Shown here: positions 2,502-59,317 of the stretch, one piece after another
Position numbering within the stretch: the stretch's first letter is position 1
Layout: each line of letters begins with the position of its first letter
IMG/VR virus record: IMGVR_UViG_3300029319_009044
Span: 1 to 64,000 of that record
Length of the DNA stretch: 64,000 bases
Direction: 5' to 3' (one strand)
Source: a virus
Made by a program: the position numbers and the translations under genes
The notes under the pieces: generated by a model
Seen by the model: only the letters and a program-made list of their open reading frames with translations
Told to the model about the DNA's origin: nothing
Database searches by the model: none

Positions 2502-5500
2502 TTACCCAACTGATATTTTTAAATCAGTACCATCACGCCAAAGGTCTCCTGCTACTCCAGGATCAGACGTTGGTAAGTTTGGCATATTAACTTTAGTTGT
2601 TAGCAAATTAGTTGATATATTATCTCCATCTAACTGAATATAATTGCAAACTCCCCCAGAACCATTATCTGTTCTTAAGAAAACATCCTGATTATCAACT
2701 GAGTTTGTTATGTATAGATCACCGGTTTTATTGTTAATGTATGAATTATCGGCCGTATGAACCAGTTCTAAATCTCCACTTGATCCAGCTTGTAAGAAAA
2801 CATCATCTTGCGCTCTAATATTTTTGTAAGCTCTCGTTAAAGTACCACCACCATCTATTTGTAGATAATTAGTTACTCCTCCGGAACCATCATCAGACTG
2901 GAAGAGGATATCTCCATCGTCTTGATAGTTAGCAATGTATAAGTCATTAGTTGTATTTCTTATATTAGAATTAGTACCATCATGCCATATTGATAAATCA
3001 TAACCGGATCCGTAATATGACTGAATGTTATCTGCATTCAGTGTGCCTTTGTGATGGTTAAGTATTTCACTGTTTCCGTCTATTGTAAAATAATCAGTTG
3101 TTCCGCCACTACCATCATCAGTCTTAAAGACAATACAACCATTATCCTGAGAATTTCTAATTTCTAAATTGCAGTTTGTGGTATTAAAAAGAGTTTTAGT
3201 GCCATCATGATACATAGCAAAATCTTTGCCTGAACCTAAAGATATTAACGAGTTGTCTGGCCAATTTGTGTAAAGTGCTGTTGAAGAACTGCCATCATGT
3301 GTTGCTGAAGACCCATCTAAAAAGAAATAGGTTGCTACACCACCAGCCCCATCATCATCCTTGAAAATGATATCTTTATCGTCAGCGTATTGTGTAATTG
3401 TTAAATTACCTTCTAAATTTTCAATAGTTGTATCTGTTCCATCGTGCCTAAAACGCAAATCAGCATTATTTCCCAAACCTAAATATGAAAAATCAGGAAA
3501 TATTGTAAAAGGATGACCAGTAGAAAGGGAGCTATCTAAATAGAAGTAGGTTTCATAGCCTCCACTACCATCATCAGCTCTAAATATAATATCTTTATCA
3601 TTTGCAAAATTTGAAATGTAAAAATCACCAAGATAATTAGTTATACCAGAGTTAGTACCGTCATGACTGATCTTAAGATCACCACCATTACCAAACATCG
3701 CTTCAACACCATCTAAAACCTGTATATCTTTGGTAAACTTAACTACTGAGTTTTGTCCATCTACTCTAAAATATTCTGTAACATCACCAGAACCATCATC
3801 ACTTCTAAATATTATAGATTTATCATCCTTTTCATTTTGTATGTATAAATCTCCTTCAGTATTTGCTATTGAAGAGTCTGTACCATTATGTCTTATCTTT
3901 AAATCAGCACCAGATCCAAAGCATGCATAGTAATTATCAGCTAACGATAAACCAGTTAAAGATGCAGAACATCCAAATATCTGACCATCTCTTTCAATAC
4001 AAAATCTTGTATTGCCGTTATCTTGAACCCGAAGTAAATCATCACTATCACCATCAAGACCAGTAACATTTACTCTAATACCACTTGCGTTATTAGTAGA
4101 GCATGCTGTAATTATTGGTCCAGCTGCTTCCATGTTTATACTACTAACTCCTTTGAGCCCTTGACTACTAATAGTTCCTGCTACTGTAAGAGAGCAAGCC
4201 GGGGCGGTAGTACCTATTCCTACCTTACCATCAGAAAGAATACGCATTGCTTCTTCATCGGCTACATCAAAGGCTAGACTGTCGCCATTGTGTCTGTACC
4301 GAATCATTCCCCTATTAGAATCATCGTCATCACCAAATACAATTTGATTTTGACCTGCCGAGCCTCCTGACCTCATGAAAAATTGAGTAGTTGCATCTGT
4401 GGCAGTGTTCCGCAAACGAATATCCGCACCCGATCCTTCAACATCGAGTAAGAAATTCGGGGTACTAGTTCCTATACCAACATTACCTCCATTTAAAAAA
4501 CTATCACCACTAGAGTTTAAACAAAGTTTATTTACTCCACTACTGTTATTAAGAATAAATTCTCCATGCTGATATCCCTCACTACTCCTTTGCATAGTAG
4601 CTACCTGAATACCAGCATTATTCAAAGTAGTTATTTCACCCTTAACGGAAAGTTCTTGAGGAGGTGTATTAGTGCCTATACCGACACTACCTCCGAAGTA
4701 ATTAGGTGATGTTCCTACAGCACTAAGTTGATTTCCGGTTATATCCCCATTTGCGCTTATGTCTCCTGTAACACTAAAGCCAGATAATTCAAATTCGTAA
4801 TTAATTTCTCCAGCCGAAAGTAAAGTAGATGCATATATCCTTTCAGCATTTATTTCCCCGTTAACGGTTAAATTACCATCCATTGTACCACCATCAGCAA
4901 ATTGCTTAGCTACAGATCCTCCACCCCCGCCATATGTATCAACAGCTCTCCGTAGAGTCATTAACTGTTGCTGAAAAGTATTAGTTAAATTTGTTTGAAT
5001 ATCATCTTGTATTTTTTTAGGATCAATTATTACATTTTTATCCCCGTACTGCTCAATTACAGTAGCTGCTTCATTTTGATAATTTGCAAATTTTGATAGT
5101 AAATCTTCTTTATTTTCTTCAATTAAATCAAAAATATATGCTTTAACTTTAGATTCTTCACCTGAAAAAGATTCTTCTATAACTTGTAATTTAGTATCAA
5201 AATAAGATCTAGCTGATTGCTCCGCTTTTGTAAACTTAGACTCTAAGGCTTCTTCTATATATTTCATAGAAGAGTCTAAAGTATCCTCTAACCCTTTCTT
5301 TACATTGCCTACACGACTTAGGGTTTTATTAAAGCTCTTATTTAATTCATTATGAATATCAACTTTTGCCTTTGATATAGATACAACTTCAGCATCTAAT
5401 TGCTTAAATTTTAAATTTATATCTTCATTAAGATCATCAATTTTTAAATCTAAGTTTTCTTGTAATAAATTAAAAGATTCTTTATTTTTCTTATCTTTAT

Positions 5501-6209
5501 CTTCAACTAATTTTATTAGTGTTGAAGTATAAATTTCATCAGTTAGATCCTTTAAGTTTTCTTTTAGTAAATCAACTGACTTATTATGTTCTTGTTTTAC
5601 TGCTGTAGTTAATTCATCACTATGATCATTTAATGACTCTCTAATATAAATTTTTAGCTTATCTTTTAAATTATCCTCTAACTGTATATTAGTTTCATAC
5701 AATTCTAATTTAGTATTTTCAGTTAAATTTAAAAACTCTTCTACAAATGAATTACGAGCATTAGAAATTATATCGTTTATTTTACTCTCTTTTAAATCTA
5801 ATGACTCTACTAGTTTTTTAATTTTTGCTTCATGTTGTTGTTTCTCTAGTTTAGTACTTGAAATTCTAGCTTGATCTATTTCATGAATAATACTTTCCTT
5901 AAAAAGACCAGAACTTTTTGGTGTATTACTATTAATAGTTTTTTTGTTGACAGTATTACTATTAAATAAGATCTCTTGAGGTCCTTTATTTAAAATAAAT
6001 TGGGCTTTATACTTCTTATTACCTACTTCTACTGGTACAGATACAACAGGTTGACCTTTATAGGTAGTTTCTTTCTCTGCTATATATGTTGAACCATTTA
6101 TCTCAAATTCAAAGACATCGAAAAAAACTTCTTCTAAGCTTTCAACAGTTAAGATGTTATGATTTGAGCTAGTATAGGTAGGTTTTACCTTTTCGCTAAA
6201 CAGTTTCAT
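2502..6209 (-). CDS. large fibre-like virion protein: N-terminal coiled coil, poly-Gly hinge, G.VGIGT repeats, six ~75-aa beta repeats
   Basis: GxVGIGT motifs; repeats of DLxIxHDGTNSxI...IF(R/K)xDDGSGGxxxYFxxDG; start moved from 6215 to 6209 because TAAATA-N5-ATG fits there. Confidence 0.7.
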   Translation of the reverse strand: MKLFSEKVKPTYTSSNHNILTVESLEEVFFDVFEFEINGSTYIAEKETTYKGQPVVSVPVEVGNKKYKAQFILNKGPQEILFNSNTVNKKTINSNTPKSSGLFKESIIHEIDQARISSTKLEKQQHEAKIKKLVESLDLKESKINDIISNARNSFVEEFLNLTENTKLELYETNIQLEDNLKDKLKIYIRESLNDHSDELTTAVKQEHNKSVDLLKENLKDLTDEIYTSTLIKLVEDKDKKNKESFNLLQENLDLKIDDLNEDINLKFKQLDAEVVSISKAKVDIHNELNKSFNKTLSRVGNVKKGLEDTLDSSMKYIEEALESKFTKAEQSARSYFDTKLQVIEESFSGEESKVKAYIFDLIEENKEDLLSKFANYQNEAATVIEQYGDKNVIIDPKKIQDDIQTNLTNTFQQQLMTLRRAVDTYGGGGGSVAKQFADGGTMDGNLTVNGEINAERIYASTLLSAGEINYEFELSGFSVTGDISANGDITGNQLSAVGTSPNYFGGSVGIGTNTPPQELSVKGEITTLNNAGIQVATMQRSSEGYQHGEFILNNSSGVNKLCLNSSGDSFLNGGNVGIGTSTPNFLLDVEGSGADIRLRNTATDATTQFFMRSGGSAGQNQIVFGDDDDSNRGMIRYRHNGDSLAFDVADEEAMRILSDGKVGIGTTAPACSLTVAGTISSQGLKGVSSINMEAAGPIITACSTNNASGIRVNVTGLDGDSDDLLRVQDNGNTRFCIERDGQIFGCSASLTGLSLADNYYACFGSGADLKIRHNGTDSSIANTEGDLYIQNEKDDKSIIFRSDDGSGDVTEYFRVDGQNSVVKFTKDIQVLDGVEAMFGNGGDLKISHDGTNSGITNYLGDFYISNFANDKDIIFRADDGSGGYETYFYLDSSLSTGHPFTIFPDFSYLGLGNNADLRFRHDGTDTTIENLEGNLTITQYADDKDIIFKDDDGAGGVATYFFLDGSSATHDGSSSTALYTNWPDNSLISLGSGKDFAMYHDGTKTLFNTTNCNLEIRNSQDNGCIVFKTDDGSGGTTDYFTIDGNSEILNHHKGTLNADNIQSYYGSGYDLSIWHDGTNSNIRNTTNDLYIANYQDDGDILFQSDDGSGGVTNYLQIDGGGTLTRAYKNIRAQDDVFLQAGSSGDLELVHTADNSYINNKTGDLYITNSVDNQDVFLRTDNGSGGVCNYIQLDGDNISTNLLTTKVNMPNLPTSDPGVAGDLWRDGTDLKISVG
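2620..3925 (-). repeat. six tandem degenerate protein repeats (~70-85 aa) in the fibre
   Basis: Repeated GxGxDLxIxHDG...DDGSGG...YFxxDG in the translation; boundaries approximate. Confidence 0.8.
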
Positions 6210-6220
6210 ATACATATTTA

Positions 6221-7201
6221 TTACTTAGCTCTATATTTCTCTACGTAATATTTAACTGTTGATGATAAATTAAATTTATTTTGCTTCTTTACTGATTTAA
6301 GATTATGTTTTGAAGAAAGCTGGTATTTAAAGTCGTGTCCTTTTCTATCTTGAACGAATTCTAAGTAGTCACTTCTCTTTCTTTTATAATTAGGAAATTG
6401 ATGTTCGATCTCTTTAATGACTTTTTTAATTAATTCAAGATTATTACAAACTAAATTACCTACAATATTATATATTTTAGCAGGTACATCATCAAACAAT
6501 ACCTCTATAATTGCTTTTGCATGATCTTGAGCATGTATCCATTCTCTTATATTTTTTCCATTACCATACACAGGTACTTTTTTACCAAGTATTACTGATC
6601 TTATTATAGTAGGAATTAATTTTTCATCGTGTTGTCTAGCTCCATAATTATTACAACATCTAGTAATAGAAGCATCTATTCCAAAAGTAGTAACATAAGA
6701 TTGTACTAATAAGTCTGATCCAGCTTTAGTAGCTGAGTAAGGTGACCTAGGGGCTAAAGGACTATCTTCAGAAAAAGGAGGATCATCTTTGTCTAAATGA
6801 CCATACACTTCATCTGTAGATACATGTATCATTCTAGCTTTATGCTTCCTAACTAATTCTAAAATTTTAGAAGTGCCTACCAAATTAGAGTCAACAAAAG
6901 ATAATGGATTATCTATAGATCTATCTACATGAGATTCTGCTGCTAAGTGTAGAACATAGTCTATTTTTTTATCGATAAATTCTAAAGGATTAGCCATGTT
7001 AAGTCTCCAATGTTCATCATTAGATATATCTATAAAATGATTTTGTACTCTTTCGTCTTTTACTATATTTTCTGCAGAAGAACCTACTCCCATTTTATCA
7101 ATATTGTATATAAAAAGCTCTTTATCTTTTAGTTTTAAAAGCTCTTTAATAACATATGACCCAATAAAGCCACATCCCCCGGTTACTAGATATGTACTCA
7201 T
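6221..7201 (-). CDS. rmlB: dTDP/NDP-glucose 4,6-dehydratase
   Basis: GGCGFIGS, HLAAESHVDRS, STDEVYG, YSATK, NNYG, DRKGHD. Confidence 0.92.
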   Translation of the reverse strand: MSTYLVTGGCGFIGSYVIKELLKLKDKELFIYNIDKMGVGSSAENIVKDERVQNHFIDISNDEHWRLNMANPLEFIDKKIDYVLHLAAESHVDRSIDNPLSFVDSNLVGTSKILELVRKHKARMIHVSTDEVYGHLDKDDPPFSEDSPLAPRSPYSATKAGSDLLVQSYVTTFGIDASITRCCNNYGARQHDEKLIPTIIRSVILGKKVPVYGNGKNIREWIHAQDHAKAIIEVLFDDVPAKIYNIVGNLVCNNLELIKKVIKEIEHQFPNYKRKRSDYLEFVQDRKGHDFKYQLSSKHNLKSVKKQNKFNLSSTVKYYVEKYRAK

Positions 7202-7638
7202 TTCTTTTTAACTATATCTGGATTTTGTTTTATAGTTTGCAATGTAATCAAATCTTTTATTCTAGTAGTTGACCACTCATGAGATCTTGTGGTATAAATT
7301 ACTCTAGGTGGTAAGTCATCTCCTGTAAATGGTTTAGCTATATAATCTTCTCCTAAGATACGAATGTCAGGTTTAAAGAATTTTATTAAATCATATAACT
7401 CTTCTTCGGTTTGATACATATAGACTTCGTCTATATACTGAATTGCCATTAAAGTCTTATATCTCTCATAATACGGTATTACAGGCTTGTATTTAGTATA
7501 TCTAGTTGAAGAAGGGTCTTTTTGCAAAAAGACTAAAAATCTATTACAATGTCTTTTAGCTTCTTCAAAAGTATAAATATAACCCGGGTGAAGTAAGTCG
7601 AAACTTCCAGCAGTAAACCCTACAATTTCTTTATTCAT
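7198..7638 (-). CDS. cytidylyltransferase family protein (TagD/RfaE-II-like)
   Basis: GSFDLLHPGY (HXGH variant), ER, GEDY, RSHEWSTTRIK. Confidence 0.8.
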   Translation of the reverse strand: MNKEIVGFTAGSFDLLHPGYIYTFEEAKRHCNRFLVFLQKDPSSTRYTKYKPVIPYYERYKTLMAIQYIDEVYMYQTEEELYDLIKFFKPDIRILGEDYIAKPFTGDDLPPRVIYTTRSHEWSTTRIKDLITLQTIKQNPDIVKKK

Positions 7639-8491
7639 CCAATATTATTTTATTCAGAGCGGAATGAATAGCAAGTTCTTCATCCATAGGGTCAAAACCA
7701 TATTTAGTTTTTAATTTATCTACTGAAAGAACACAATTAGACCTATTAGCTAAACAATTTAGTTCATCAAATTGAACCCATTTCCATTTATCATTACCTA
7801 ATCCATATTCATCCATAAGCTCTATTATATTATCAGTAGCTAGAGGATTAGGCTGTACAAAATTTAATATATCTTTTTCTTTTGTTTCAACTTTATTCTT
7901 AATTACTTTCTCAATAAAATCTAACAATTGTGGAATGTAAGTTTTAGAATTTTTTAAATTTATAAGATTATTGTATTTTTTAATTTTAGTTAAGTAAGAT
8001 CGTTCATGTAACCTATCACAGAAAGGCATTCTTACTCTTAAAATTAATCCATGATCACATCCTAATTCAAATGCATGTTTACTTTTTGAATATGTAGAAG
8101 ATTCTCTATCAAAGAATCCAAAGTTAGGATAATCTTCTTCATTGAATTCTTTAGTATAATTAGTATATATGCAGCCTGAAGATATATGAATATAATTAAT
8201 ATCATAAGCTTTACATAAATTACTAAGCTTTAAAGGTGCAAAGGTATTTAATTCATAGCATAGCTCAGGTTTTCTTTCTCCTTCATCTACATTTGGTCTA
8301 CCAGTAAAACCAAAACAATTAATTACATAATCAAATTTTTCTCTTTTAAACCATTTTATAAGTTCTGATGAATTAGTATAATCAAGAAACTCTTTTCGTA
8401 CTATAGTAACATCGCTCTTTTCAATTTTTTTAAGACGTCCATAAAGGTAAGAGCCTACATATCCATGTCCAAGTATAAGTATTTTTTGCAT
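7631..8491 (-). CDS. NDP-4-keto-6-deoxyglucose 3,5-epimerase/4-reductase (NRS/ER, RmlD-superfamily SDR)
   Basis: GHGYVG, GFTGRPNVD..E, SSGCIY, YSKSK, LRVRMP, RSNC.L as in plant and giant-virus NRS/ER. Confidence 0.75.
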   Translation of the reverse strand: MQKILILGHGYVGSYLYGRLKKIEKSDVTIVRKEFLDYTNSSELIKWFKREKFDYVINCFGFTGRPNVDEGERKPELCYELNTFAPLKLSNLCKAYDINYIHISSGCIYTNYTKEFNEEDYPNFGFFDRESSTYSKSKHAFELGCDHGLILRVRMPFCDRLHERSYLTKIKKYNNLINLKNSKTYIPQLLDFIEKVIKNKVETKEKDILNFVQPNPLATDNIIELMDEYGLGNDKWKWVQFDELNCLANRSNCVLSVDKLKTKYGFDPMDEELAIHSALNKIILDE

Positions 8492-8492
8492 A

Positions 8493-9533
8493 TTAAATCT
8501 CTAATGTATTAGGTTCGTATATTTTACTATGTGTCTTTGTACATCTTACAAATGTAGCACACTTGCATAAATGTTTAAGCTTAGCAGCTCCAACATATGT
8601 ACATGTACTTCTAATACCTCCTAAAATATCTTGAACAATATAACGAATGGGTCCTTTATAAGGTATAACTACTCTTCTTCCTTCCGATGTTCTATAATCT
8701 TTGAGACCTCCATTATGCTTATCGTTAGCAATTTTGCTACTCATTCCATAAAACTCAACATATTCTTTTCCATCTATTATAATTTTCTCACCTCCACCTT
8801 CAGGAGAACCAGCTAACATAGATCCGAGCATTACAAAGTCTGCGCCAGCTCCAAACGCTTTAGCTACATCACCCGGCGTCGTACATCCACCATCAGCAAT
8901 TATATGACCATCTAAACCATGAGCAGCATCAGCACATTCAGCAATACAACTAAACTGAGGATAACCAACTCCTGTCTTAAGTCGAGTTGTACAGACACTT
9001 CCTGATCCAATACCTACTTTAATAATATCTGCTCCAGCTAAAAGTAGCTCTTCAACCATTTCACCCGTAACAACATTACCTGCTATGATATTACTTTTAG
9101 GAAAAGTTTTTCTTACTTCCTTTACAAAGTCGACAAGTGCTTGAGTATAACCATTCGCTACATCAATACATATATTACGTACTGAAGCTTTTTTATAAAT
9201 ACGAGATAATTTCTTGTAATCATATTCATTTCTTCCTACAGTTACAGCTACATGCTTACCTTTATTATCTTTAAGCTCTTCAATAAGCTCCTTTTCATCA
9301 ATGTCCTTCTTGTAACAAGTAAAGAGATCTAGATCACTTAAGGTTCTTCCTACGTCTAACGTACCAACACCATCCATGTTAGCAGCCATTATCGGTATAC
9401 CGCGGTATGAACCACCGTATTTGAATCTAAAAGTTCTTGTTAAATCCACCTCTTTACGAGATGTTAACGTAGACCTTTTAGGTCTAATCAACACATCATC
9501 GAAATCGTACTTTAATTCAGTTTCTATACGCAT
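8493..9533 (-). CDS. guaC: GMP reductase
   Basis: [58 protein letters not shown]. Confidence 0.93.
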
Positions 9534-9799: not shown

Positions 9800-10426
9800 A
9801 TGACGTTCTTAGAAGAAGTAAACTTAATTTTAGAAAAAGTTGGTCAGTATAAGCCTATCAACTTACCTTACAAATTAAATGCATTAGAGCCAGTAGTTAA
9901 CAAGCAAACTACTGACTTTCATTTTAACAAGCATTATAAGGGGTATGTTAAAAAATTAAATGCAGCTATGGGTGCTAGAAAAAAAATACCTTTGGTAGAG
10001 TTAGTTAAAAATATAAAAGGTTACAATGATAAAGTAAGAGATAATGCTGGAGGAGCTTATAATCATCAATTATTTTTTAACATGATGAAGCCAGGGGGTA
10101 GTGACTTTAACGGAGAGATTGCTGATAGAATTAAAAAACGTTTTGGTACATATGCTAAATTCAAAAAAGAGTTTATTGATAATGCAGCAAGTCAGTTTGG
10201 TTCAGGGTGGGGTTGGTTAGTTGAAAAAGATGGTAAATTAGATTTAGCAAAGACACCTAATCAAGATAATCCACTAATGCATAATATGGGTAAGCCTATA
10301 TTAGGTGTTGATGTATGGGAGCATAGCTACTACTTAATGTATGGACCAGATAGAAAAGAATGGCTAAGTAAGTTTTTCGAGATTGTTAACTGGGATTACT
10401 GCTCCGCTCTTTTGCATACTAGCTAG
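9800..10426 (+). CDS. sodA: Fe/Mn superoxide dismutase, Mn-type signature
   Basis: LPY..NALEP, HF.KH, NAGGAYNH, FGSGWGWL, TPNQD.P, DVWEHSYY. Confidence 0.9.
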   Translation: MTFLEEVNLILEKVGQYKPINLPYKLNALEPVVNKQTTDFHFNKHYKGYVKKLNAAMGARKKIPLVELVKNIKGYNDKVRDNAGGAYNHQLFFNMMKPGGSDFNGEIADRIKKRFGTYAKFKKEFIDNAASQFGSGWGWLVEKDGKLDLAKTPNQDNPLMHNMGKPILGVDVWEHSYYLMYGPDRKEWLSKFFEIVNWDYCSALLHTS

Positions 10427-11089
10427 GATAGCTTCTATTTCTGCTTTCATATAGTTTACATGATAAGTCAAAAATCTATCATCTTTAAGATAAAAAATAA
10501 CACATTTTCTACATCTCTTACTTGTCATTCTTTCATACAAGTAAGCATATAAAGATAGTTGTAGACCATATAAATTAAATTCACAGTTATGAAGATGACT
10601 CACTGGGTCTTTAAGTCTTTCACAATAAGAAGAGCTAAATCTAAAACGCTTATTAGTTTTAAAGTCGCCAATAGTAAACTCATTTTTATGTTCGTAAATT
10701 AAATCTGCAGTACCAGCGATCTTAAACTCTTCATCATATAATAAATTCTCACACAAAACATTCTTAAAAGAATCTATAGAACGTTCAGCTGCTTTATCGT
10801 ATGATTTACATAACCAACCATAATTATCTTGTACATCGCCATAACTAATATAATCTTCTAAAATTTTATGAATATTAGTACCTCTCGTACAAGCTCTTAC
10901 CTTTTCTTTCTCCCACATTTCAAGAACTAACTCTTGTGATATACCTTCTCTATCTGCTACTCGTTTGGAATGTCCATCTCTATCAAAAGGTTGTTTGTAT
11001 TTACCGAGTAGAGTAGTTACGGAAATAAACTTTTCATTTGTATCAGTATGAGTATACGTATGAGAAGCTTCGTCAAATTTAATTTTCAC
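10364..11089 (-). CDS. PD-(D/E)XK exonuclease (Cas4-like phage nuclease)
   Basis: SVTTLL, RGT.IH..LE, E..L....IAGTADL, DFKT, QLSLYAY. Confidence 0.8.
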   Translation of the reverse strand: MKIKFDEASHTYTHTDTNEKFISVTTLLGKYKQPFDRDGHSKRVADREGISQELVLEMWEKEKVRACTRGTNIHKILEDYISYGDVQDNYGWLCKSYDKAAERSIDSFKNVLCENLLYDEEFKIAGTADLIYEHKNEFTIGDFKTNKRFRFSSSYCERLKDPVSHLHNCEFNLYGLQLSLYAYLYERMTSKRCRKCVIFYLKDDRFLTYHVNYMKAEIEAILASMQKSGAVIPVNNLEKLT

Positions 11090-11176
11090 TATTCTATATT
11101 ATACTTATAGAATTATAAAATCAATAAAAATTAACGTATCTCTAGAACTACGTTGTTTTTACTATAAATATATAAA

Positions 11177-11494
11177 ATGGAACCTGAAAAATCCCTACTC
11201 AAAGAGTTTCTAAGCGGTGGTTGGGTCGTACCTTTGATAGGGGCCGGCGCTATGCTAGCGCGTTTATTATCTGGGGAAAACAATTACACTTGGGGTCAAC
11301 AACTTAAAAAGATACTAACTGCTGGTATATCAGCTGGAATAGCATGGTTTATACTTGAACAAACTGAGATTTCTTCTCTTTATAAAGCAGTTACATATGG
11401 AATTATTGGTGTTATATCACCTGAGGTTATAGAAGGTATAGTAAAACTTGGTAAAAAATTTGCAGATAATCCTGAAAAGGTTATCAAAAAGTAA
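11177..11494 (+). CDS. small multi-pass membrane protein (holin-like)
   Basis: About three hydrophobic segments, basic C-terminus, late promoter TATAAATA. Confidence 0.5.
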   Translation: MEPEKSLLKEFLSGGWVVPLIGAGAMLARLLSGENNYTWGQQLKKILTAGISAGIAWFILEQTEISSLYKAVTYGIIGVISPEVIEGIVKLGKKFADNPEKVIKK

Positions 11495-11739
11495 TGAAAC
11501 CAAAATATTTAGTATATATTTTAGCAGCTATTATTTTAGCGTTTGTTATTAGAGGGTATTTTTGCGTAGATATGGTTCATGTTTATTTAGATGCTTTAAA
11601 TAAAGGAGCTCTAACTACAGATGGAGATTTGTATTGTAGTGTAAGTGAAAATATAGAAGGATTTAAGAAGCATTTACTATTCTCAGGGGTGTTAGCAGTA
11701 GTTATTGCTGTTTGTTGCAGGTTAAAAGCACCGAAGTAA
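11494..11739 (+). CDS. small two-TM membrane protein
   Basis: Two hydrophobic segments; TAATG coupling to the upstream gene. Confidence 0.55.
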   Translation: MKPKYLVYILAAIILAFVIRGYFCVDMVHVYLDALNKGALTTDGDLYCSVSENIEGFKKHLLFSGVLAVVIAVCCRLKAPK

Positions 11740-11751
11740 ATAAATATAATT

Positions 11752-14139
11752 ATGGGAAAGAAGATATCCGAACTTACTATCGCTAGTACTCCGTATGAAG
11801 GAGAAGAGCTGTTCGCTATGGTTGAAGATAGTGCTACTGTAGCTGCTCCAATTAGCTCATTTCAATCCTTTTTATCAGGTCAGGATCATTTAGCATCGCC
11901 TCATAAAAATAATCATTTCGTTTGTGATCAAACTGTAGCTGGAAAATTAAGTGGAGAGCAATTGAACATAGGTACTCAGAATAACGCTACATTAGGTTCA
12001 CAAGCTTCCATAGCTGGTGGATGTAAACAGGCTGCTACAGGAGCTCAAACATTTATAGGAGGAGGAGACTGTAACGTAACTACAGGAGTTAACTCTGCTA
12101 TTCTAGGAGGTGAAGAAAACTGCTCTCAAGGTGCATGTGGAATAATTGTAGGAGGTAAGTGCCATGAAACAGAAACTACTGCTACATATGGTTTTATTGG
12201 CGGTGGGTTTAAAAACTGTGTGACTGCTAATTACGGTACAATTGGTGGAGGTCAATGTAATACAGGTACAACTAATGGTGGTTATGGTTTTATAGGTGCG
12301 GGTAGACGCAATGAAGTATGCGCATCAAAAGGAGGTATCATTGCTGGAGAAGATAATACTATTACAGGGTGCGATTCATTTATAGGAGCTGGAAAAGCAA
12401 ATAATGCCAGGGGTCAAAATTCAACTGTGGTAGGTGGAATTAGTTCGTGTGCTATTGGTAAAGGTTCTTTTGTTGGAGGTGGTATTGTTAACTGCGCAAC
12501 AGGGGGATGTGCTATAGCTGGAGGGGGCAGCTTAAACAAGCCCACTGGATGTGTTAGTGCAATAGTTGGTGGTATTACAAATACAGCTTCTGGAAGTGCT
12601 TCATTTATTGGAGGTGGATCAACCAATACTGCTTCAGCTAAAGCGTCTGTAGTTGGTGGTGGTTTTAACAACACTGCTGAAGGTCCTAGTGCTACTAAAG
12701 GATGCACAACTGTAGCAGGTGGTGAAACTAATATAGTTTCTCAATGCTGGGGATTTATCGGAGGAGGGTGCAACAATACTGTAAATGGTGTTGCTGGAGT
12801 AGTAGCTGGAGGCGTTGCAAATACAGCAGATGCTGATTATACTTTTATCGGAGGAGGTGAGTCAAACTTACCAGTTAATTCTAGTCACGGTGTAGTTGCA
12901 GGTGGTTGTGGAAATGTTCTAGCAGCTCCTTGCACAGTAATAGCAGGAGGTAAATCAAACTCAACTGCAGCGGGTACAGATTTTGGTATTATCGGAGGTG
13001 GAGAATCTAATGCTATTACTGCTAATGCATGCCATGGATCTATTATAGGTGGTTGTGGAAACAAAGTATGTAATGACTTTGGTACAGTTGGTGGTGGAAA
13101 AGCAAACTGCTCTGGCGCTGCATGTTCTTATGTAGGAGGTGGAGAATCTAATGATATAGCTGCTGGTAATTACTCAGTAATAGTTGGAGGTAAGGGCAGC
13201 TATACCTGTAATACAGGTGTATTTATTGGTGGAGGTTATCTTCATTGTGCATCAGGAGCAGAATGCAGTACTATAGTCGGAGGTTATGGTAATACATTAA
13301 TAACCGGAGCTAGTGGTGCATTTATAGGCGGGGGTGTTCATAATAAAGGATTAGGTCAAGGAACATTTATTGGAGGAGGAGCACTTAACTGCACTAACTC
13401 ATGCGCTGGAGGATGTTTTGCTACTATAGCAGGAGGTAGAAAGAATACAGTTGATGGAGCATTTTCAACTTTAGTAGGTGGATGTAGTAACTGTGTATCT
13501 GCTGCTTGTGGTACAGTGGTTGGAGGATATGAAAACTGTGTAGAAAGTAGTGGTGCAAGTAGCTTTATTGGAGGAGGTTATTGCAATACTGCTAATGTAA
13601 CGCAAGGTACTATTGGAGGAGGCAGAGAAAATAATGTTGATTCTGGTGAAGGAGGCTTTATTGGAGGAGGTTGTGGTAATACTACTTCTAATGCATATGC
13701 AACATTAGGTGGAGGTAAAGGTAATATTGCTTCAGGTACATGTTCTTTTGTAGGTGGAGGACAACTCAACTGTGCAACAAAACCGTGGTCATTAGTAGTG
13801 GGAGGATGTCAAAATAGAGAATCAGGTACATGTTTAAATGTTATTGTAGGAGGTATGACTAATCTTATATGCGAATCAGCTACAGCAAGTAGTATATTAG
13901 GAGGGTTTAATAATGTGTTATCTGCAAATTATGCTTTCATAGGTGGCGGATGTGGTAATAAGACACATTGTACAGCTCATCATCATTCAGCTATTGTAAC
14001 TTCAGATATAACAACAGTTTCAGCTTGCATGTTACATGCTAATTCATTATATCTCAAAAATTTACCAACAGCTGAACCACATACTGCAGGAGTAATATGG
14101 AGAGATGGTACAACACTTAAAATATCTTGCGCAAGTTAA
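11752..14139 (+). CDS. Gly/Cys-rich 14-aa-repeat adhesin or fibre protein (YadA-head-like beta-roll)
   Basis: N-terminal KISEL fibre-anchor-like motif; >40 repeats of SxI(G/V)GGxxNxAxG; about 45 Cys; late promoter. Confidence 0.7.
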   Translation: MGKKISELTIASTPYEGEELFAMVEDSATVAAPISSFQSFLSGQDHLASPHKNNHFVCDQTVAGKLSGEQLNIGTQNNATLGSQASIAGGCKQAATGAQTFIGGGDCNVTTGVNSAILGGEENCSQGACGIIVGGKCHETETTATYGFIGGGFKNCVTANYGTIGGGQCNTGTTNGGYGFIGAGRRNEVCASKGGIIAGEDNTITGCDSFIGAGKANNARGQNSTVVGGISSCAIGKGSFVGGGIVNCATGGCAIAGGGSLNKPTGCVSAIVGGITNTASGSASFIGGGSTNTASAKASVVGGGFNNTAEGPSATKGCTTVAGGETNIVSQCWGFIGGGCNNTVNGVAGVVAGGVANTADADYTFIGGGESNLPVNSSHGVVAGGCGNVLAAPCTVIAGGKSNSTAAGTDFGIIGGGESNAITANACHGSIIGGCGNKVCNDFGTVGGGKANCSGAACSYVGGGESNDIAAGNYSVIVGGKGSYTCNTGVFIGGGYLHCASGAECSTIVGGYGNTLITGASGAFIGGGVHNKGLGQGTFIGGGALNCTNSCAGGCFATIAGGRKNTVDGAFSTLVGGCSNCVSAACGTVVGGYENCVESSGASSFIGGGYCNTANVTQGTIGGGRENNVDSGEGGFIGGGCGNTTSNAYATLGGGKGNIASGTCSFVGGGQLNCATKPWSLVVGGCQNRESGTCLNVIVGGMTNLICESATASSILGGFNNVLSANYAFIGGGCGNKTHCTAHHHSAIVTSDITTVSACMLHANSLYLKNLPTAEPHTAGVIWRDGTTLKISCAS

Positions 14140-14175
14140 CTTGATTTATAATAAAAGCATACTAAATTTATTAGT

Positions 14176-15174
14176 ATGGCCACAACAGTTTTTCACATTG
14201 AAGGAGGTATAGGTAAAAATATTGCAGCTACAGCAGTTATTGCTGCGTATAAAAAAGCTAAACCTGAACGTAAAATTATAGTTGTATCAGCTTGGGCTGA
14301 AGTTTGGATGAATAATCCAAATGTTGCAAGGTTTTATGTAATAGGTAATACGCCTTACTTTTATAAAGATATTATCCAAGGTAAAGATGTTGAAATTTAC
14401 TCAGGTGATCCTTACAGAACTACAGATCATATTACTAAAAAGACCCATTTAATTAAAACGTGGTGTAAGATGGCTGGAGTAGAACATAACCATGAGGGTC
14501 CTAATCTTCATTTTAATTTTAGAGAGTTAGAAGAAGGGGCTGCTTATGTTAATCAGTTTAGAAGAGACGGTCGACCTGTTCTTCTTTTTCAACCTTTTGG
14601 AGGCCCAGGTAAAGAGCATCAACAGCATCCATATTCTTGGACAAGAGACATGCATCCAAGTCAAGCTCAAGCTGTAGTAAATAAATTAGCTCAAAAATAT
14701 AATATTGTTCATGTATGCTATGAATTTCATCCAAAATTACAAAACTGTCATCGCTTTGATAAAATTATTGGAAAGAAAGCTCTGTTTGCAATGACAGGTA
14801 ATGCAAATAAACGTTTATTTGTAGACTCTTCACTTCAGCATGCTGCAGCTGCACTTGGTCAAAAATCTGTAGTATTGTGGGTAGCAACACAGCCAAAGAT
14901 ATTTGGATATGGTATTCATAACAATATAGGACCTAAGAAAGAATATCTAGAAGGCCATATCGATTCATATTTGTTTGACTATAATTTTACAGGAACCATT
15001 TATGAATGCCCGTATAAAGATCCAGCTGATATTCATGATGTAGATGAAATAGTAGCTGCTGTTGAGCAGGAGGATAAACCTAAAGAGGAGCCTAAACAAG
15101 AACCTAAAGTGAAGCCTAAAGAAGAACCTAAAGAAGAACCTAAAGAGGAGCCTAAGAAAGATAAAAAATCTTAG
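14176..15174 (+). CDS. GT-B glycosyltransferase, GT9 (heptosyltransferase)-like, with C-terminal KEEP repeat tail
   Basis: GGIGK.IAAT...KKA.P...I.V, NP.V, FVDSSLQHAAAALG..SVVLW..T.P..FGY resemble GT9 motifs. Confidence 0.7.
   Translation: MATTVFHIEGGIGKNIAATAVIAAYKKAKPERKIIVVSAWAEVWMNNPNVARFYVIGNTPYFYKDIIQGKDVEIYSGDPYRTTDHITKKTHLIKTWCKMAGVEHNHEGPNLHFNFRELEEGAAYVNQFRRDGRPVLLFQPFGGPGKEHQQHPYSWTRDMHPSQAQAVVNKLAQKYNIVHVCYEFHPKLQNCHRFDKIIGKKALFAMTGNANKRLFVDSSLQHAAAALGQKSVVLWVATQPKIFGYGIHNNIGPKKEYLEGHIDSYLFDYNFTGTIYECPYKDPADIHDVDEIVAAVEQEDKPKEEPKQEPKVKPKEEPKEEPKEEPKKDKKS
15076..15160 (+). repeat. 12-bp tandem repeat encoding (K-E-E-P)n
   Basis: cctaaagaagaa/cctaaagaggag units, about 7 copies. Confidence 0.85.
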
Positions 15175-47384: not shown

Positions 47385-49616
47385 ATGGCAGGCATAGGTG
47401 AAAGTTTAAAAGGATTAAGAATAGCTGACTATTATTCTTCATTGTTGCATGTTAGTGGAGCTAATATATCTCTATTAGGTGATAACAAAATATATGATGG
47501 TGTTGGTAATACTACAGGTCTTTCTTTGAGTAGTATAGATGATAGAGTTAGTTTTAACCATTACATATATCCTGAAGGTTTTGATAGTGTTAATGAGTGG
47601 ATTGATGCATTTTATCCAATTAATAGTATAATCTTAACTGCAACTAATAATAATCCTACTAATAGAATAGCTGGTACTAAATGGGTCTTAGATAGTGGTG
47701 GCAGATTTTTTGTAGGTGTAGGTGGCTCTGATAAAGAATTTTCTCCAGGTGGTGATGGAGTTAATTCTGGTGACTTAGCTGGCGAATATACAGTAAAACT
47801 TAATGGAAGTAATTTACCAGCTCATACACATGATATTAATTTAGGAACTTCAACTTTAGGAGATACATCTTTAACTAATGTTTTTAGTTATTATTTTGGA
47901 CCTACTATTAATCCACGGGGGTTAACTGAAGAAAAAGCATATACTACTACTAATGACCTACTTCCTAATGTGTCAGATAACCCTTTTTCATATTTCTTAA
48001 ATCAAGATGAAATTGAAGCATTTCAAAATAATACTTACTTTGACGGTCATGATAATTATAGAGATTTTTTAATTAAAAAAAGACATGATGAAGGATTTAA
48101 ATATAGTGATGCTGATTTTGATCCTAAACTAGCTAGTTATTCATTAGCAGGGTGGGGAGGCTCTGTTGTAGGAGGACCAGGGTGGGGTGGTTTTATTAAC
48201 ACTAATATACCTAATACAAAAACTTTTATACCTAATAGCCCTAGACCAGTTGGTGTTGAATGGAGTTCTCAAAATGTAGTATTAGAAACTGCAGACTTCG
48301 ATCCTAGAGATGCAGATAGGGTACACCCAGGAAGATTAGGTTCTGAAGATTTATTAAAAGCTAGAAATATAATTATTGATGTGTTAGGTAAAGAGGAAGC
48401 AGCTATAGCATTAGCTAATGTAGATCGTTTAAAAGAATTAAATGAAATAGTGGAAATCGCTCAAACTGACAATGTATATTTAAACGGGCAAGTTAGAGGA
48501 TCAACTACAGTACCTTCTTCTAATACTGGTAGTACTGTAGCTCATAATAATATAAACCCTAGTTATGGTTTTTATGTTTGGAGAAGAGTACCATTAGATT
48601 TCGTAGAAGAGGAAATAGATAAAGGAGGTGGAGCTACAGTTATTCCAACTTCAACTCTATTTAAAGGAACTATCACTACTAATAAAGAAAATTTACAACT
48701 AGATGAATGGGCTAAAGATAGAGGGTGGGATGGTTTAGGTCCAGCAGAAATAACTATAAGTGAAAATGTATACATTTATTCAGATGATACTGAGTTACCT
48801 GCATTAACTACAGGAAATTGGCCTGGGGGATTAACTTTAATTAATAATGGCTTTATTATGGGCAGAGGTGGAGATGGTGGCTCATTGAGATCGGTTTTAA
48901 CTTTAGACAAACCTATAGCGGAAGGTAAAAATATATGGGATGGAAATGATGGAGGAGATGCTATATTTATAAACACTACTGATAGTATAACTATTACCAA
49001 TAATGGTGGAATAGCTGGTGGCGGAGGTGGTGGAGCTGGTAGTGGTACCGGTAACTTTGGTGGAGGAGGAGGCGGTGCAGGTGGCGGTAACGGTGGTTTA
49101 GGAGCTGGACCTTCTAGGGATCAATATGAATTAGGAGGCCCTGGTGGTGGACCAGGTTTACCTGGAGAAGATGGCAATAACTGGAAAAATTTAGATACTG
49201 ATGCTATAGCTGGAAGAACACGTGCATTTTTACAAGGAAGGGGTGGTGAAGCTGGTGGAGGAGGATCAGGAGGTTTTAAAAGAAAAGGTAACGATCCTCA
49301 TGGAGGCGGTGGAGGTGGTGGAAGAGTATTATCTCTTACTGCATCAGGAGGATCCGGAGGTGCCTACGGTGGAGGTGATGGCGGATCTACTAACGAAGCT
49401 GGAGAATCAGTAAGTTCAAGAGAAAACTTTCCATGGGGTAATGCTGCTGGTGGAGGAGGATGGGGAGCTGATGGAGGAGATTGTTTTAACTCTAGAAGAG
49501 TATCTGGTGTTGCAAGAATAGCGCCTAAAGGTGGTAAAGGAGGAAAAGCAATATTTTCTATTTTAAATGCAAGCTTTACAATTAATGGTGGAATAGTTTA
49601 TGGTACTATAGACTAG
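47385..49616 (+). CDS. gp10-C-terminal-like baseplate/fibre protein fused to a gp38-like glycine-rich adhesin domain
   Basis: YPI.SI, NP, GT.W, GRF.VG, LPAHTH, HNN..P.Y..YVW.R; then LINNG.I.GRGG.GG, NNG.IAGGGGGG. Confidence 0.65.
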   Translation: MAGIGESLKGLRIADYYSSLLHVSGANISLLGDNKIYDGVGNTTGLSLSSIDDRVSFNHYIYPEGFDSVNEWIDAFYPINSIILTATNNNPTNRIAGTKWVLDSGGRFFVGVGGSDKEFSPGGDGVNSGDLAGEYTVKLNGSNLPAHTHDINLGTSTLGDTSLTNVFSYYFGPTINPRGLTEEKAYTTTNDLLPNVSDNPFSYFLNQDEIEAFQNNTYFDGHDNYRDFLIKKRHDEGFKYSDADFDPKLASYSLAGWGGSVVGGPGWGGFINTNIPNTKTFIPNSPRPVGVEWSSQNVVLETADFDPRDADRVHPGRLGSEDLLKARNIIIDVLGKEEAAIALANVDRLKELNEIVEIAQTDNVYLNGQVRGSTTVPSSNTGSTVAHNNINPSYGFYVWRRVPLDFVEEEIDKGGGATVIPTSTLFKGTITTNKENLQLDEWAKDRGWDGLGPAEITISENVYIYSDDTELPALTTGNWPGGLTLINNGFIMGRGGDGGSLRSVLTLDKPIAEGKNIWDGNDGGDAIFINTTDSITITNNGGIAGGGGGGAGSGTGNFGGGGGGAGGGNGGLGAGPSRDQYELGGPGGGPGLPGEDGNNWKNLDTDAIAGRTRAFLQGRGGEAGGGGSGGFKRKGNDPHGGGGGGGRVLSLTASGGSGGAYGGGDGGSTNEAGESVSSRENFPWGNAAGGGGWGADGGDCFNSRRVSGVARIAPKGGKGGKAIFSILNASFTINGGIVYGTID

Positions 49617-54455: not shown

Positions 54456-55322
54456 ATGGGCTTTCCAGTTGACATAAAACTACCTGATCAAGCGAGATAT
54501 TATACTTTTATAGAAACTAGTAAAAGATTTAATTCTAACTATGATATTACATGGTCTTTTGAGTATAAGCTTCCTGAAACAAGTATACCTAATAATAATA
54601 ATTATGAACTAGGATTTAGTACTTTTATTACTAATTTATCTGCTCCTTTATCTTCATTACCGGGTCAATATATTGGTGATCAAGATCCTGGTGTGAGCTT
54701 GTCAGCAGTAGCTCTTCTTACAGAAGGAGCAGCACCTGAACTCTTAAGAACACAAAGTGATGATACTTTGGTTTATGATGGAGGTACACTTAGTGGCTCT
54801 ATTGTAAAAATAGCTTTTGATTCAACCGGAAGATATGCACTTTCAGCTAGAGATGATAGACCAGGGGTAACTGAAGCTGAAATAAATAGGCAGTCTTTAG
54901 TAGTAAGAGATTATCAATTGAATGTAAGAGCAAATTCACCTCTTTCTACTATATCTAATGTTTTTAGTACGTTATCAACTAATACATTTAGAACGTTAAG
55001 ATTTAGGTATGTAAATTTAGGTCAAAAAGTACATATTGATTTTAGAGAAAGCGATACTACTGAATTTACCTTACTAACTACTATAAACATCGAACCAAGA
55101 TTAACTGGTTTAGATAATTTAGAGAATTTTTATTGTGGTTTCTCGCTTTCAACTCCAATTTCAACAACTGATACGGGGCTATCTGCTAGAGATTTCTTTT
55201 TACGTAATTTTAATGTAGAAGGGTATGTAGGAACAGAAGTTCTCACTGAAACTGTCATGACCCCTCCGTTATCTGTTAATTCTAATATACAGTATACTAC
55301 TGTAACTAATATAACCGCATAA
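54456..55322 (+). CDS. virion protein, possible ConA/legume-lectin-like fold
   Basis: Beta-strand pattern, IAFDS.G, LRFRY...V.ID; late promoter. Confidence 0.45.
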   Translation: MGFPVDIKLPDQARYYTFIETSKRFNSNYDITWSFEYKLPETSIPNNNNYELGFSTFITNLSAPLSSLPGQYIGDQDPGVSLSAVALLTEGAAPELLRTQSDDTLVYDGGTLSGSIVKIAFDSTGRYALSARDDRPGVTEAEINRQSLVVRDYQLNVRANSPLSTISNVFSTLSTNTFRTLRFRYVNLGQKVHIDFRESDTTEFTLLTTINIEPRLTGLDNLENFYCGFSLSTPISTTDTGLSARDFFLRNFNVEGYVGTEVLTETVMTPPLSVNSNIQYTTVTNITA

Positions 55323-58300: not shown

Positions 58301-59317
58301 GTAAGAAATCCTGAAACTACATGCCAGGTAGATACTACAATTACATTTAATAATGATACAACATGCTCAACTGGTTCAACTTGTGAAGTAGATAGAACTA
58401 TTACAGTTGATACATGTGAAGTCAAAACTTGTGATACTATATGTATACCAGGTACTTGTGTTACCGGACCAACTTTATGTAATACTATAGATATTTGCGA
58501 AACACCAACAGTTGTTGTTGATACTATCGATAATCTCTTTGGAACAGATATAGAGACGGAGACTACTACTACTTGTAACCCCCCTATAATAGTTGATCAA
58601 GGTACATGTATTGATGTATGTGCTCCCGGGCCAACAACTTGTCTACCTCCTTTAACTACTGATATATGTGACACTGATAGACCTATAGTTTGTCTACCTG
58701 GTCCGTTTGATATAATTACAGATACTGAAATTAGCTTACCGGGACCAACAACTGATATACCAGATATTACTACTATACCTGAGCCTACAACTTGTATACC
58801 AACGCCAACTGGTGGTTGCTGTCCTCCTACAGAAACTGTAACATGTGTACCTAGGCGTATATGTATACCTGGACCAATTACTCCGCCTGTAGAAATTATT
58901 CCACCACCTGTTATAGTTGACCCACCGATTACCTTTCCACCGCCTATTATTTTTACACCACCACCAGAAATACCTCCATTTATTCCTGCAGACTGTGGTA
59001 AGCCTCCTATACCTAGAGTAGGTGTTCCAGTAGGTGAAGATCCTATCGTTCCTGTTGAAGATGCACCTGAGCCAGAAGTACAACCACCAGTTATTGAAGC
59101 TCCTGTATTACTTTATCCAGCTCCTGTTCTACCATTAACCCAACCGTTTCTAAGTAATATTAATTTTAATACTAATATAACTAAAAAAACTCCTACTCCA
59201 TACTCTTTTGAGGAAGAAGAAACTTCTACCACTATCGATAGACCAACGCCAGAGGATACAGCTTTAAAACAACAGTTATGTGATGACGAAGAAGATTGTG
59301 ATACTTTAGGATTTTAA
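55322..59317 (+). CDS. 1331-aa modular protein: repeats, right-handed beta-helix (pectin-lyase-like), Cys/Thr-rich and Pro-rich stalk
   Basis: PbH1-like I.NN.I/GI.I repeats at about 56500-57620; TTC/DTC repeats; poly-Pro. Confidence 0.65.
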   Translation: MNISKLNVLNIETKNTQLPKLGGGGVEGSYSQAEGTVFVSKIEVDKFYYPELSYQIFDNNGDTDAFGDPLISFSGNTHLTDIEGKYFIIVEQTLEGIADPNNGSMNFTLQFTNAEEDIGIPLNVSLIVTNEEGDVSGVSTTPQVGTCPSSTCPPSICPSIQRPELSVNVEEVVPIQRPELTTYVEEVVPIQRSEQSVNVEQVVPIQRPELSVNVEEVVPIQRSEQSVNVEGVVPIQRPELTTCVLSDLRVVSTTKVPEPTVNVNKDCAGVISCVEKPGAGCRQTVDETAVPRLGDCDYQEPTAITEEEYLGIVEDEPTIVTETEESTATTEEEYLGIETEREEIVTNVNRVIPISTTEESTATTEEEYLGIVEDEPSFIEEEIVPEESQSIIIDPINVATGQELKDALGKAPIINIVSDITLTEFLYIPGNTTIRGINNPRVLSTAGAAFNIREDNITLTGFTLANADGNNGYGIEIGRKGGRASLNAPKNIIIDSLTFDGIAGSTDKATAINVSGYQFVSTLVEPFRTVPGLLEGASLIKNVKITNNIFKNIPNTALEIWNAEDVVVDSNIFETTRGTHTTRGNAVRANSLVNARFTSNTLKDIGRSGIEITGNGTVGVLVQDNKIEKFGTQTNLVRTFTSGITIVQGANEVTIKDNTIEGSGKGGGIEMAQNSSNFLIENNTISNVNKGISISAHVDSFNVKNNIINYLQYGIQTYQAWNGRINSNILTQPDSPEVANPAISIEQSNGIVVVLNTINGDFYESNDEKAILVYANYPTQESKLLYAGGTRENRLAMLDYARGIPNIYDQVYKPAASKVDDVIANTLENNIVNGDPDSRVFFSQSSRVVLPSGVAGTTGRKEFEVLVLEQKEIIEIIDTSFNTAVINDTGTCQTIQEVIVDNQNVTPPEEDTSTVLIEEDKINNTVTFTTVETVETVNKDDLNIVTVDVDPTLGFCSTNTEETPELPTTTCTNLLVNCVNIKNCGSLCTTTTPVRNPETTCQVDTTITFNNDTTCSTGSTCEVDRTITVDTCEVKTCDTICIPGTCVTGPTLCNTIDICETPTVVVDTIDNLFGTDIETETTTTCNPPIIVDQGTCIDVCAPGPTTCLPPLTTDICDTDRPIVCLPGPFDIITDTEISLPGPTTDIPDITTIPEPTTCIPTPTGGCCPPTETVTCVPRRICIPGPITPPVEIIPPPVIVDPPITFPPPIIFTPPPEIPPFIPADCGKPPIPRVGVPVGEDPIVPVEDAPEPEVQPPVIEAPVLLYPAPVLPLTQPFLSNINFNTNITKKTPTPYSFEEEETSTTIDRPTPEDTALKQQLCDDEEDCDTLGF
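55795..56050 (+). repeat. six 45-bp tandem units (VVPIQR[PS]E[LQ]xxxVEE)
   Basis: ctatacaaaga recurs every 45 nt. Confidence 0.9.
56232..56450 (+). repeat. three dispersed copies encoding TEEEYLGI; two share 43 identical nt
   Basis: gaagaatccactgctactacagaagaggagtatttaggtatag at about 56291 and 56393. Confidence 0.85.

Follow-up and report, generated by a model that had tools for sequence, protein, structure and literature searches.

A cysteine-rich fibre and a GT9-fold glycosyltransferase as a possible virion-modification module of a marine T4-like phage

Why does a phage fibre carry dozens of cysteines, and why does its gene stand directly upstream of a glycosyltransferase (GT) gene? This question is raised by the plus-strand open reading frame (ORF) at 11752-14139 of a 64,000-nucleotide (nt) stretch of DNA (the window) from an uncultured marine T4-like phage, represented in IMG/VR by a contig of 170,908 bp that is 81% complete. 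The original prediction held that the cysteines of this adhesin-like protein are exposed modification sites, for example for S-glycosylation by the adjacent transferase, or that they cross-link after lysis. Here, we report that within the data reached, cysteine richness of the fibre tracks with the presence of the GT gene, and that the phage probably modifies its own fibre.

The fibre and the adjacent transferase

The two genes are organized as follows, with residues numbered within each protein:

11752-11901, plus strand: N-terminal anchor of the fibre, residues 1-50 (MGKKISELT...), recognized by alignment and common to all GT-linked fibres
12010-13986, plus strand: about 42 beta-roll coils of the fibre, residues 87-745, with 42 of the 45 cysteines, recognized by the repeat consensus h-h-G-G-(G)-x-x-N-x-a-x-G-x-x-s, the match to UspA1 and the AlphaFold2 (AF2) model
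13987-14139, plus strand: C-terminal module of the fibre, residues 746-795 (...LKNLPTAEPHTAGVIWRDGTTLKISCAS), and stop codon, common to the fibre at 2502-6215 and many phage fibres
14176-15063, plus strand: GT-B fold glycosyltransferase core, residues 1-296, modelled by AF2 with a predicted local confidence (pLDDT) of 88; nearest to GT9 by Foldseek
15064-15174, plus strand: Lys/Glu/Pro-rich low-complexity tail of the GT (KPKEEP...), 36 residues (297-332), pLDDT ~50, modelled as disordered

The translated fibre has 795 amino acids (aa), of which 21.4% are glycine and exactly 45 (5.66%) are cysteine, in agreement with the approximate count made originally. Among the 127 ORFs of at least 150 aa in the 170,908-bp record, it ranks first by cysteine content (median 1.14%, second 3.1%; binomial P ~6e-17 for the excess), with an enrichment of ~5-fold over the genome-wide cysteine fraction of 1.2% and of ~6-fold over the other 53 ORFs of the window, which average 0.95%. 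The window's other Gly-rich fibres contain 0.1-0.7% Cys. Composition alone is insufficient to account for the excess, since the gp10/gp38-like fibre at 47385-49616 (P0123) has a single cysteine at 18.7% Gly, and cysteine content has a median of 0.49% among the 120 best database matches to the repeat region. Encoded on the plus strand, the gp10/gp38-like fibre joins a Gp10_C domain to a gp38-like, glycine-rich adhesin region in which long poly-Gly runs occur.

By phmmer, the head of the Moraxella adhesin UspA1 (PDB 3pr7) was found to match the fibre at E 4e-12 over two stretches. The repeat had been described as 14 aa long; its period is actually 14-20 aa, with a mode of 15. Searches of the fibre protein itself against Pfam and PHROG gave no match, and nothing was found by tblastn against 50,697 phage records or by a word-index search with its N-terminal 60 aa. 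Domains carried by homologs of the fibre are LbR_Ice_bind, UspA1_rep, YadA_head and Peptidase_S74, with the Pfam entries PF21300, PF18792 and PF05658 among them. The AF2 monomer model was all-beta, with an overall pLDDT of 65 (60-85 in the repeats). As Foldseek returned no match to this 795-aa model at E<=0.001, and the head of BpaC only at a probability of 0.47, it was left out of all geometry. A three-copy model of residues 560-795 scored 0.95, compared with 0.00 for the best of three controls, and its runs agreed in at least 97% of contacts with a partner pLDDT of at least 91. Of 30 proteins solved as one-chain pairs, 20 attained that mark, as did one of 23 solved as single chains, a calibration from which three copies differ; the model used our own alignment, solved head trimers exist, and its pass may reflect likeness to such trimers, UspA1 among them. 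The C-terminal module forms a dense trimer interface in this model.

As modelled, the fibre resembles a UspA1/YadA head beta-roll with a trimer-compatible fold. It shares with these heads (PDB 3pr7, 3ntn) repeats of 14-16 aa with the pattern GGG-x-x-N, and a left-handed beta-roll that would fit a trimer is expected. Unlike them, it lacks a YadA-like outer-membrane anchor barrel and a coiled-coil stalk, for neither of which a Pfam match was found, and its model contains no long helix; both of its termini are phage modules instead. The C-terminus is the phage LPTxxP...LKIS module, ending ...LKNLPTAEPHTAGVIWRDGTTLKIS, that is also present in the 1237-aa fibre at 2502-6215. The N-terminal anchor (M-x-x-K-I-S-x-L...) belongs to a very large family with 5346 library proteins at E<=0.001. 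Among the anchor-family matches listed (P0246-P0395), 102 have at least 200 aa, with a median of 0.58% Cys, and most of these have unrelated shafts and are Cys-poor. UspA1 itself has no cysteine in its repeats over the aligned stretch.

The GT gene adjoins the fibre gene, as originally stated: it starts 36 nt downstream of the fibre stop codon, with no terminator-like site between the two. The best PDB fold matches of the GT model were all GT9 enzymes, namely 3tov, WaaF (1psw), WaaC (6dfe/2h1h) and TibC (4rb4), at E 1e-11 to 1e-7; the fold is thus GT-B, not that of GT2 (GT-A). By sequence, the Pfam model PF01075 (Glyco_transf_9) matched at E 0.002, with 17.8 bits where the cut-off is 22, and only over residues 215-244, in the C-terminal DSSLQHAAAALG stretch. 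The NCBIfam model RfaC gave 15.5 bits against a cut-off of 437, and a profile of 37 GT homologs found no match among PDB sequences. The protein corresponds to phrog_8954 and has 1157 homologs, mostly marine and largely from Tara and other marine metagenomes; these are 292-307 aa long, most without the Lys/Glu/Pro tail. One distant copy only was present in the 50,697 deposited phage records. In this genome, the search for a second GT9-like gene or a sulfotransferase above cut-off found none.

Upstream of the fibre, several features suggest a late transcription unit:

11163-11170, plus strand: TATAAATA, similar to a T4-type late promoter and placed 6 nt ahead of the ATG at 11177
11177-11739, plus strand: two small co-oriented ORFs of 105 aa (weak holin-like match) and 81 aa (four cysteines)

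The TATAAATA site is the likely start of a late unit spanning 11177-15174. The pair of small ORFs also precedes the fibre in loci L003, L006-L009, L156 and L158, which represent the window's own lineage. Just upstream of the fibre block are an Fe/Mn superoxide dismutase gene (9800-10426, plus strand) and a PD-(D/E)XK nuclease gene (10364-11089, minus strand), and the same loci keep the order dismutase, nuclease, fibre, GT.

Cysteine content and neighbouring transferase genes

To compare the cysteine content of related fibres with and without the transferase, we assembled 27 loci from IMG/VR, each encoding a homolog of the GT at 52-88% identity. Wherever the upstream DNA was included, a Cys-rich gene (2.9-7.2%) was found to end 20-50 nt before the GT gene, and five further GT loci from other assemblies had the same Cys-rich upstream gene. 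The adjacency is conserved in ~25 loci. The fibres concerned have shafts of four types:

Shaft type 1: UspA1-like 15-mers, ~800 aa
Shaft type 2: UspA1-like 15-mers, 257 aa
Shaft type 3: short, 277-487 aa, most without such repeats
Shaft type 4: YadA-like 14-mers (NSNFLGxxAGxGATxA), with Cys at the x positions

Control fibres were collected from IMG/VR with a degenerate DNA pattern for the C-terminal motif NLPTSDPGV. Among the 74 fibres obtained, the six with a GT gene have 2.3-8.2% Cys, and the 68 without one have at most 1.2%. A search of these 68 control loci turned up neither a GT9-like nor a sulfotransferase gene. Absence of the GT within the same anchor family is accompanied by low cysteine content: locus L165, which has the synteny and anchor of the YadA-like lineage and no GT, encodes a fibre with 0.5% Cys, and in L166 and L167, with the same anchor and C-terminus and no GT, the fibre has 1.4%. 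When 11 GT-linked fibres were compared with 48 unlinked ones, cysteine was the sole strongly discriminating residue (4.6% versus 0.3%, z 15); serine was equal, and threonine and aspartate were lower in the GT-linked fibres. Replacement of Ser or Thr by Cys was considered and not seen; in Cys-rich homologs, Ala, Asp and Glu are depleted instead. The cysteine content of these fibres does, then, follow the presence of the GT gene, as the original prediction would have it.

In four GT-linked loci (L160:4193-6712, L161:3726-6676, L012 and L027), the Cys-rich fibre and the GT9-like enzyme are followed by a PF00685 sulfotransferase. Just upstream of these three-gene cassettes, RmlD-like and NTP-transferase genes lie on the other strand.

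Position, spacing and turnover of the cysteines

Exposure of the cysteines was judged from repeat registers, from substitution partners in orthologs and from the interface list of the trimer model. With the conserved Asn of each coil taken as register 0, the 42 repeat cysteines are distributed as follows:

Register -2 (GG-C): 8
Register -1 (GGx-C): 4
Register +1 (N-C): 10
Register +3: 4
Register +4: 1
Register +5 (before the next coil, as are +6 and +7, 13 in all): 4
Register +6: 7
Register +7: 2
Register +9: 1
Register +11: 1

The registers named in the original prediction are therefore all occupied, with +3 in addition. None of the 42 falls at the core registers -6 to -3, 0 and +2, which belong to the inner strand and point inward. 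In the trimer model, chains meet at registers -5 to -2 and +6 to +10, regularly in all 11 modelled coils, and registers -1 to +5 make no contact with another chain. From the register counts and the lack of core cysteines, we assign ~23 cysteines to the outer strand and ~19 to the subunit seams. An alignment of eight ortholog sequences shows that 21 of the 45 cysteines exchange with D/E/K/R/Q/N/H, 12 with small residues only and three with hydrophobic ones, and nine were classed as invariant. Of these nine, C547 simply lacks a counterpart in the alignment and C427 faces a gap in two of the rows, which leaves seven that are invariant across all spanning orthologs. Together, these observations bear out the claim that the cysteines are exposed. 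A cysteine ladder was considered and rejected: same-register cysteines occur in adjacent coils ~2-3 times against ~2.3 expected (hand count), in keeping with the spread over several registers that had been described.

The cysteines turn over rapidly. Six full-length orthologs (47-82% identical) have 40-54 cysteines each (3.7-7.2%), and 120 alignment columns hold at least one cysteine, of which seven are invariant. Cysteine identity across these orthologs is 48%, not above overall identity, and the count is odd in four of the six. Disulfide-bonded cysteines are normally among the best conserved residues of a protein, and a cysteine identity no higher than the overall level would be unusual for them. 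A diversity-generating retroelement was considered as a source of the variation and set aside, no reverse transcriptase having been found in the record.

Spacing was compared with a null in which cysteines were reshuffled among Cys-permissive columns with their register preserved. No Cys-Cys separation between 1 and 20 was enriched (maximum z 1.8), and separations of 1 and 2 were depleted (z -2.5 and -2.4), a pattern that fits separate sites and not pairs. Seam positions that could face each other between chains (-2 opposite +5 to +7, in the same coil or the one before) co-occur in five of eight cases against 4.2 expected (hand count). Fixed disulfide pairs are thus disfavoured, and the view that the cysteines are unlike a fixed disulfide scaffold holds; for the cross-linking after lysis that was offered alongside it, the pairing statistics give no support. 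If any two cysteines form a structural pair, the best candidates are C233 and C248, both invariant and both at register +1, in adjacent coils; C332 and C340 occur together in three orthologs and are both missing in the others. Neither a DsbA nor a thioredoxin gene was found in the 81%-complete record, and the sequence has no recurring motif for metal binding, such as CxxC or HxH.

A second Cys-rich putative virion protein, with no adjoining transferase gene, is encoded at 55322-59317 (plus strand, 1331 aa). It has a right-handed beta-helix (PF13229), about five tandem units of ~20 aa (VVPIQRPELSVNVEE) near its N-terminus and a Cys/Thr/Pro-rich end tail that holds most of its 37 cysteines (2.8%).

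Probable modification of the fibre and competing explanations

The nearest known counterparts of this gene pair are TibC/TibA and Aah/AIDA-I, which involve bacterial autotransporter heptosyltransferases (BAHT; eLife 2014, PMC4358343). In these systems, too, the gene of a GT9-type GT-B enzyme lies beside that of a long beta-solenoid repeat adhesin, which is hyperglycosylated in the cytoplasm at many repeat positions, and the best fold matches to the phage GT include TibC. The BAHT family is marked by an N-terminal beta-barrel, a thumb consisting of a beta-hairpin, and a four-Cys iron finger (PMC4358343). The phage enzyme, with ~296 core residues, differs in lacking the barrel, its model beginning with a Rossmann strand at residues 3-8, and the iron finger: of its cysteines, only C97 and C278 are invariant, C181 comes close, and CxxC pairs are absent. 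The phage systems also differ in gene order, which is fibre then GT, and in the putative substrate, a trimeric virion fibre marked by cysteine and without serine enrichment. To our knowledge, the glycocin S-glycosyltransferases are the only well-established bacterial enzymes that add a sugar to the Cys thiol of a ribosomal product. Here again the substrate gene adjoins the transferase gene (SunS, ThuS and pallidocin PalS; e.g., PMC6405829). The acceptors of these enzymes are one or two cysteines of small peptides, whereas the phage enzyme is GT-B/GT9-like and its putative acceptor has ~45 cysteines per chain. Among phages, glycosylation of mycobacteriophage virions of the Che8/Corndog/Myrna type was reportedly described by Freeman et al. 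in 2023, with GTs encoded beside structural genes decorating virion proteins. That modification is different in being O-linked, on the C-terminal tails of capsid and tail-tube proteins, by other GT families and with no cysteine signature.

Fold, timing and conserved adjacency lead us to view the pair as a fibre-modification module of the TibC/TibA kind, and, as stated above, the phage probably modifies its own fibre. A further and more tentative step, possible though short of likely, is that the cysteines are the feature that the enzyme needs, most simply as S-linked acceptors, within a late fibre-plus-transferase module. We propose it because the cysteine signature is specific to enzyme-linked fibres, survives shaft replacement and acts as a set of separate exposed sites. 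S-glycosylation of cysteine is plausible here, and we infer the fibre as substrate, the S-linkage and the donor alike.

Candidate donor genes, and a second fibre that offers an internal Cys-poor comparison, lie on the opposite strand:

2502-6215, minus strand: second fibre, 1237 aa, 0.7% Cys, same C-terminal module, directly downstream of the sugar genes
6221-7201, minus strand: dTDP-glucose 4,6-dehydratase-like (RmlB-like) gene, candidate for sugar-donor synthesis
7198-7638, minus strand: RfaE-domain-II/TagD-like nucleotidyltransferase gene, candidate for sugar-donor synthesis, its RfaE-domain-II-like match being below cut-off
7631-8491, minus strand: RmlD-like reductase gene, candidate for sugar-donor synthesis

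The RmlB-like and RmlD-like genes point to a 6-deoxyhexose rather than an ADP-heptose donor. Such genes also flank the fibre-GT pair in L016, L160, L161 and L168. In the window, they form part of a minus-strand run (6221-9533) in which genes for a GMP reductase, the RmlD-like reductase, the RfaE-domain-II/TagD-like protein and the dehydratase-like protein lead straight into the fibre at 2502-6215, which may be co-expressed with the sugar-donor pathway. Isolated cysteines replace other residues in the repeats of this second fibre, as had been noted (DNGCIVF versus DDKDIIF, and GGVCNY versus GGVTNY).

The mechanism that we envisage would begin with late expression of fibre and GT as a two-gene virion-modification module. 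Under the reducing conditions of the host cytoplasm, the 795-aa protein would fold into a trimeric shaft, a left-handed beta-roll like the UspA1/YadA head, flanked by an N-terminal anchor and a C-terminal trimerization module that are both common among phages. With its ~45 cysteines at non-core repeat positions only, these would remain free surface thiols. The co-transcribed GT9-fold transferase would then find its acceptor in the folded fibre, in the way that TibC and Aah act on beta-helical adhesins, and would most likely attach sugars to the fibre thiols in S-linkage, from a phage-made NDP-6-deoxyhexose or host ADP-heptose. The outcome would be a glycan-coated fibre whose glycan pattern shifts as cysteine positions turn over.

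Several considerations weigh against this proposal. We know of no GT9-fold enzyme that makes S-glycosides, those described being O-transferases, and the known protein S-glycosyltransferases belong to GT2, with a GT-A fold, unlike the phage GT. No common sequence motif or sequon was found around the cysteines across three fibre architectures. The invariant cysteines may be structural, and at the ~19 seam positions a bulky sugar might not fit in the modelled trimer, where interchain disulfides are conceivable. The GT-linked fibres all belong to one N-terminal anchor family, so that their lineages are not fully independent and nominal Fisher values for the link between cysteine content and GT overstate independence. 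In other marine T4-like phages, Cys-rich beta-roll fibres with other N-termini occur with no GT9 gene in the stretch of DNA retrieved: in L032 (11400-12230) and L035 (9239-10069), the fibre (4.4% Cys) is followed by a PF00685 sulfotransferase, and in L034 (8282-9736; 4.5%) by a protein like the arylsulfotransferase PF05935. A further Cys-rich beta-roll fibre, in L001, has neither a GT9 gene nor a sulfotransferase in view, although only 3.6 kb of sequence is available. Conversely, a GT homolog of 38.6% identity in a Kyanoviridae single-cell virus (L155; MH319754.1 120618-133439) has no Cys-rich neighbour; it is flanked by a sulfotransferase and a carbamoyltransferase, with a 916-aa Laminin_G_3 protein (1% Cys) upstream. 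Finally, the acceptor of TibC is serine (PMC4358343). From the sulfotransferase-only loci, it follows that Cys-rich fibres go with adjacent group-transfer enzymes generally and not with this GT alone. What remains of the original prediction is that the cysteines are exposed, show no fixed pairing and track with the GT; an exclusive link to this GT does not.

Among the alternatives, an unlikely one that nevertheless survives best is that the GT adds heptose or hexose to Ser/Thr of the beta-roll, in the very manner of TibC and Aah, and that the surface and seam cysteines oxidize after lysis in oxic seawater to sporadic intra- and inter-chain disulfides that toughen the fibre; both traits would then co-occur as properties of one long-lived, exposed fibre type. 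GT9/BAHT enzymes do act on Ser of beta-helical adhesins (PMC4358343), and acceptors are abundant, with S+T making up ~18% of the fibre; yet Ser and Thr are not enriched in GT-linked fibres, in which cysteine stands out at z 15, and the loss of cysteine richness without the GT is left unexplained. As for the disulfides, the 19 seam cysteines are placed where, in the model, register -2 of one chain faces +6 to +8 of the next, and C332/C340 come and go together. There is also precedent: in cyanophage Pam3, an aquatic myovirus, fibre and baseplate cysteines form functional disulfides after assembly (PMC9942802), and a siphovirus tail tube appears to offer another case (PMC13576161). The Pam3 cysteines, however, are few, fixed and position-specific, whereas those of the 795-aa fibre are many, unpaired by every statistic tried and in rapid turnover. 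Their average conservation, the odd counts in orthologs, the depletion of close spacings and the near-expected seam pairing all speak against disulfides.

A less probable alternative still is that the cysteines are free functional thiols, engaged for example in thiol-disulfide exchange with a receptor or in soft-metal binding, and that the GT and sulfotransferases modify another virion protein or the host envelope, or add a thiol-shielding glycan. The cysteines are indeed exposed, unpaired and evenly spaced, the sulfotransferase-only loci imply that the partner enzyme need not be a GT, and the fibre at 2502-6215, given its place next to the sugar genes, could be the true acceptor. On the other hand, by general chemistry, free thiols would soon lose their reduced state in oxic seawater, metal binding finds no recurring CxxC or HxH, and the 20-50 nt adjacency of fibre and GT outlasts complete shaft replacement, which argues that the fibre itself is the partner. 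The last reading, that the cysteines have no function and arise as a side effect of G/T-rich codons in the repeats, or were inherited as a peculiarity of one fibre family that chances to lie beside a moron insertion site with transferase genes, could draw on the strong G skew (0.35) and high GC content (41.6% versus ~32% elsewhere) of the fibre gene and on the single anchor family, but it is already disfavoured and very improbable, since equally Gly-rich fibres (P0123 and the 68 controls, with 7-18% Gly) have 0-1% Cys, the 120 beta-roll homologs are Cys-poor, the control loci yielded no GT9-like or sulfotransferase gene, and cysteine richness is retained in three shafts of unrelated sequence and is missing from fibres that have the same anchor and no GT.

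Returning to the proposal of a self-modifying fibre, its broadest form is that marine T4-like phages S-glycosylate their own fibres on dozens of cysteines by means of a minimal GT9-fold enzyme, that sulfotransferases add to this in sister lineages, and that rapid relocation of cysteines along the beta-roll reshuffles the glycans. We regard this general form as speculative and somewhat unlikely. If true, it would be the first case of a virion glycosylated on cysteine, and of an S-glycosyltransferase with the GT9 fold; our literature searches gave no mention of glycosyltransferases linked with Cys-rich phage fibres, nor of S-glycosylated virions. Pairs of an adhesin and a GT9-type transferase are already known in bacteria. 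If the fibre is the substrate of the GT, hyperglycosylation of beta-solenoid adhesins would extend from bacterial pathogens to abundant marine phages, in which glycans on the virion could influence host range, the stickiness of particles and their decay at sea. If, moreover, the cysteines are the acceptors, this would represent new enzymology and a new way of diversifying a receptor-binding surface.

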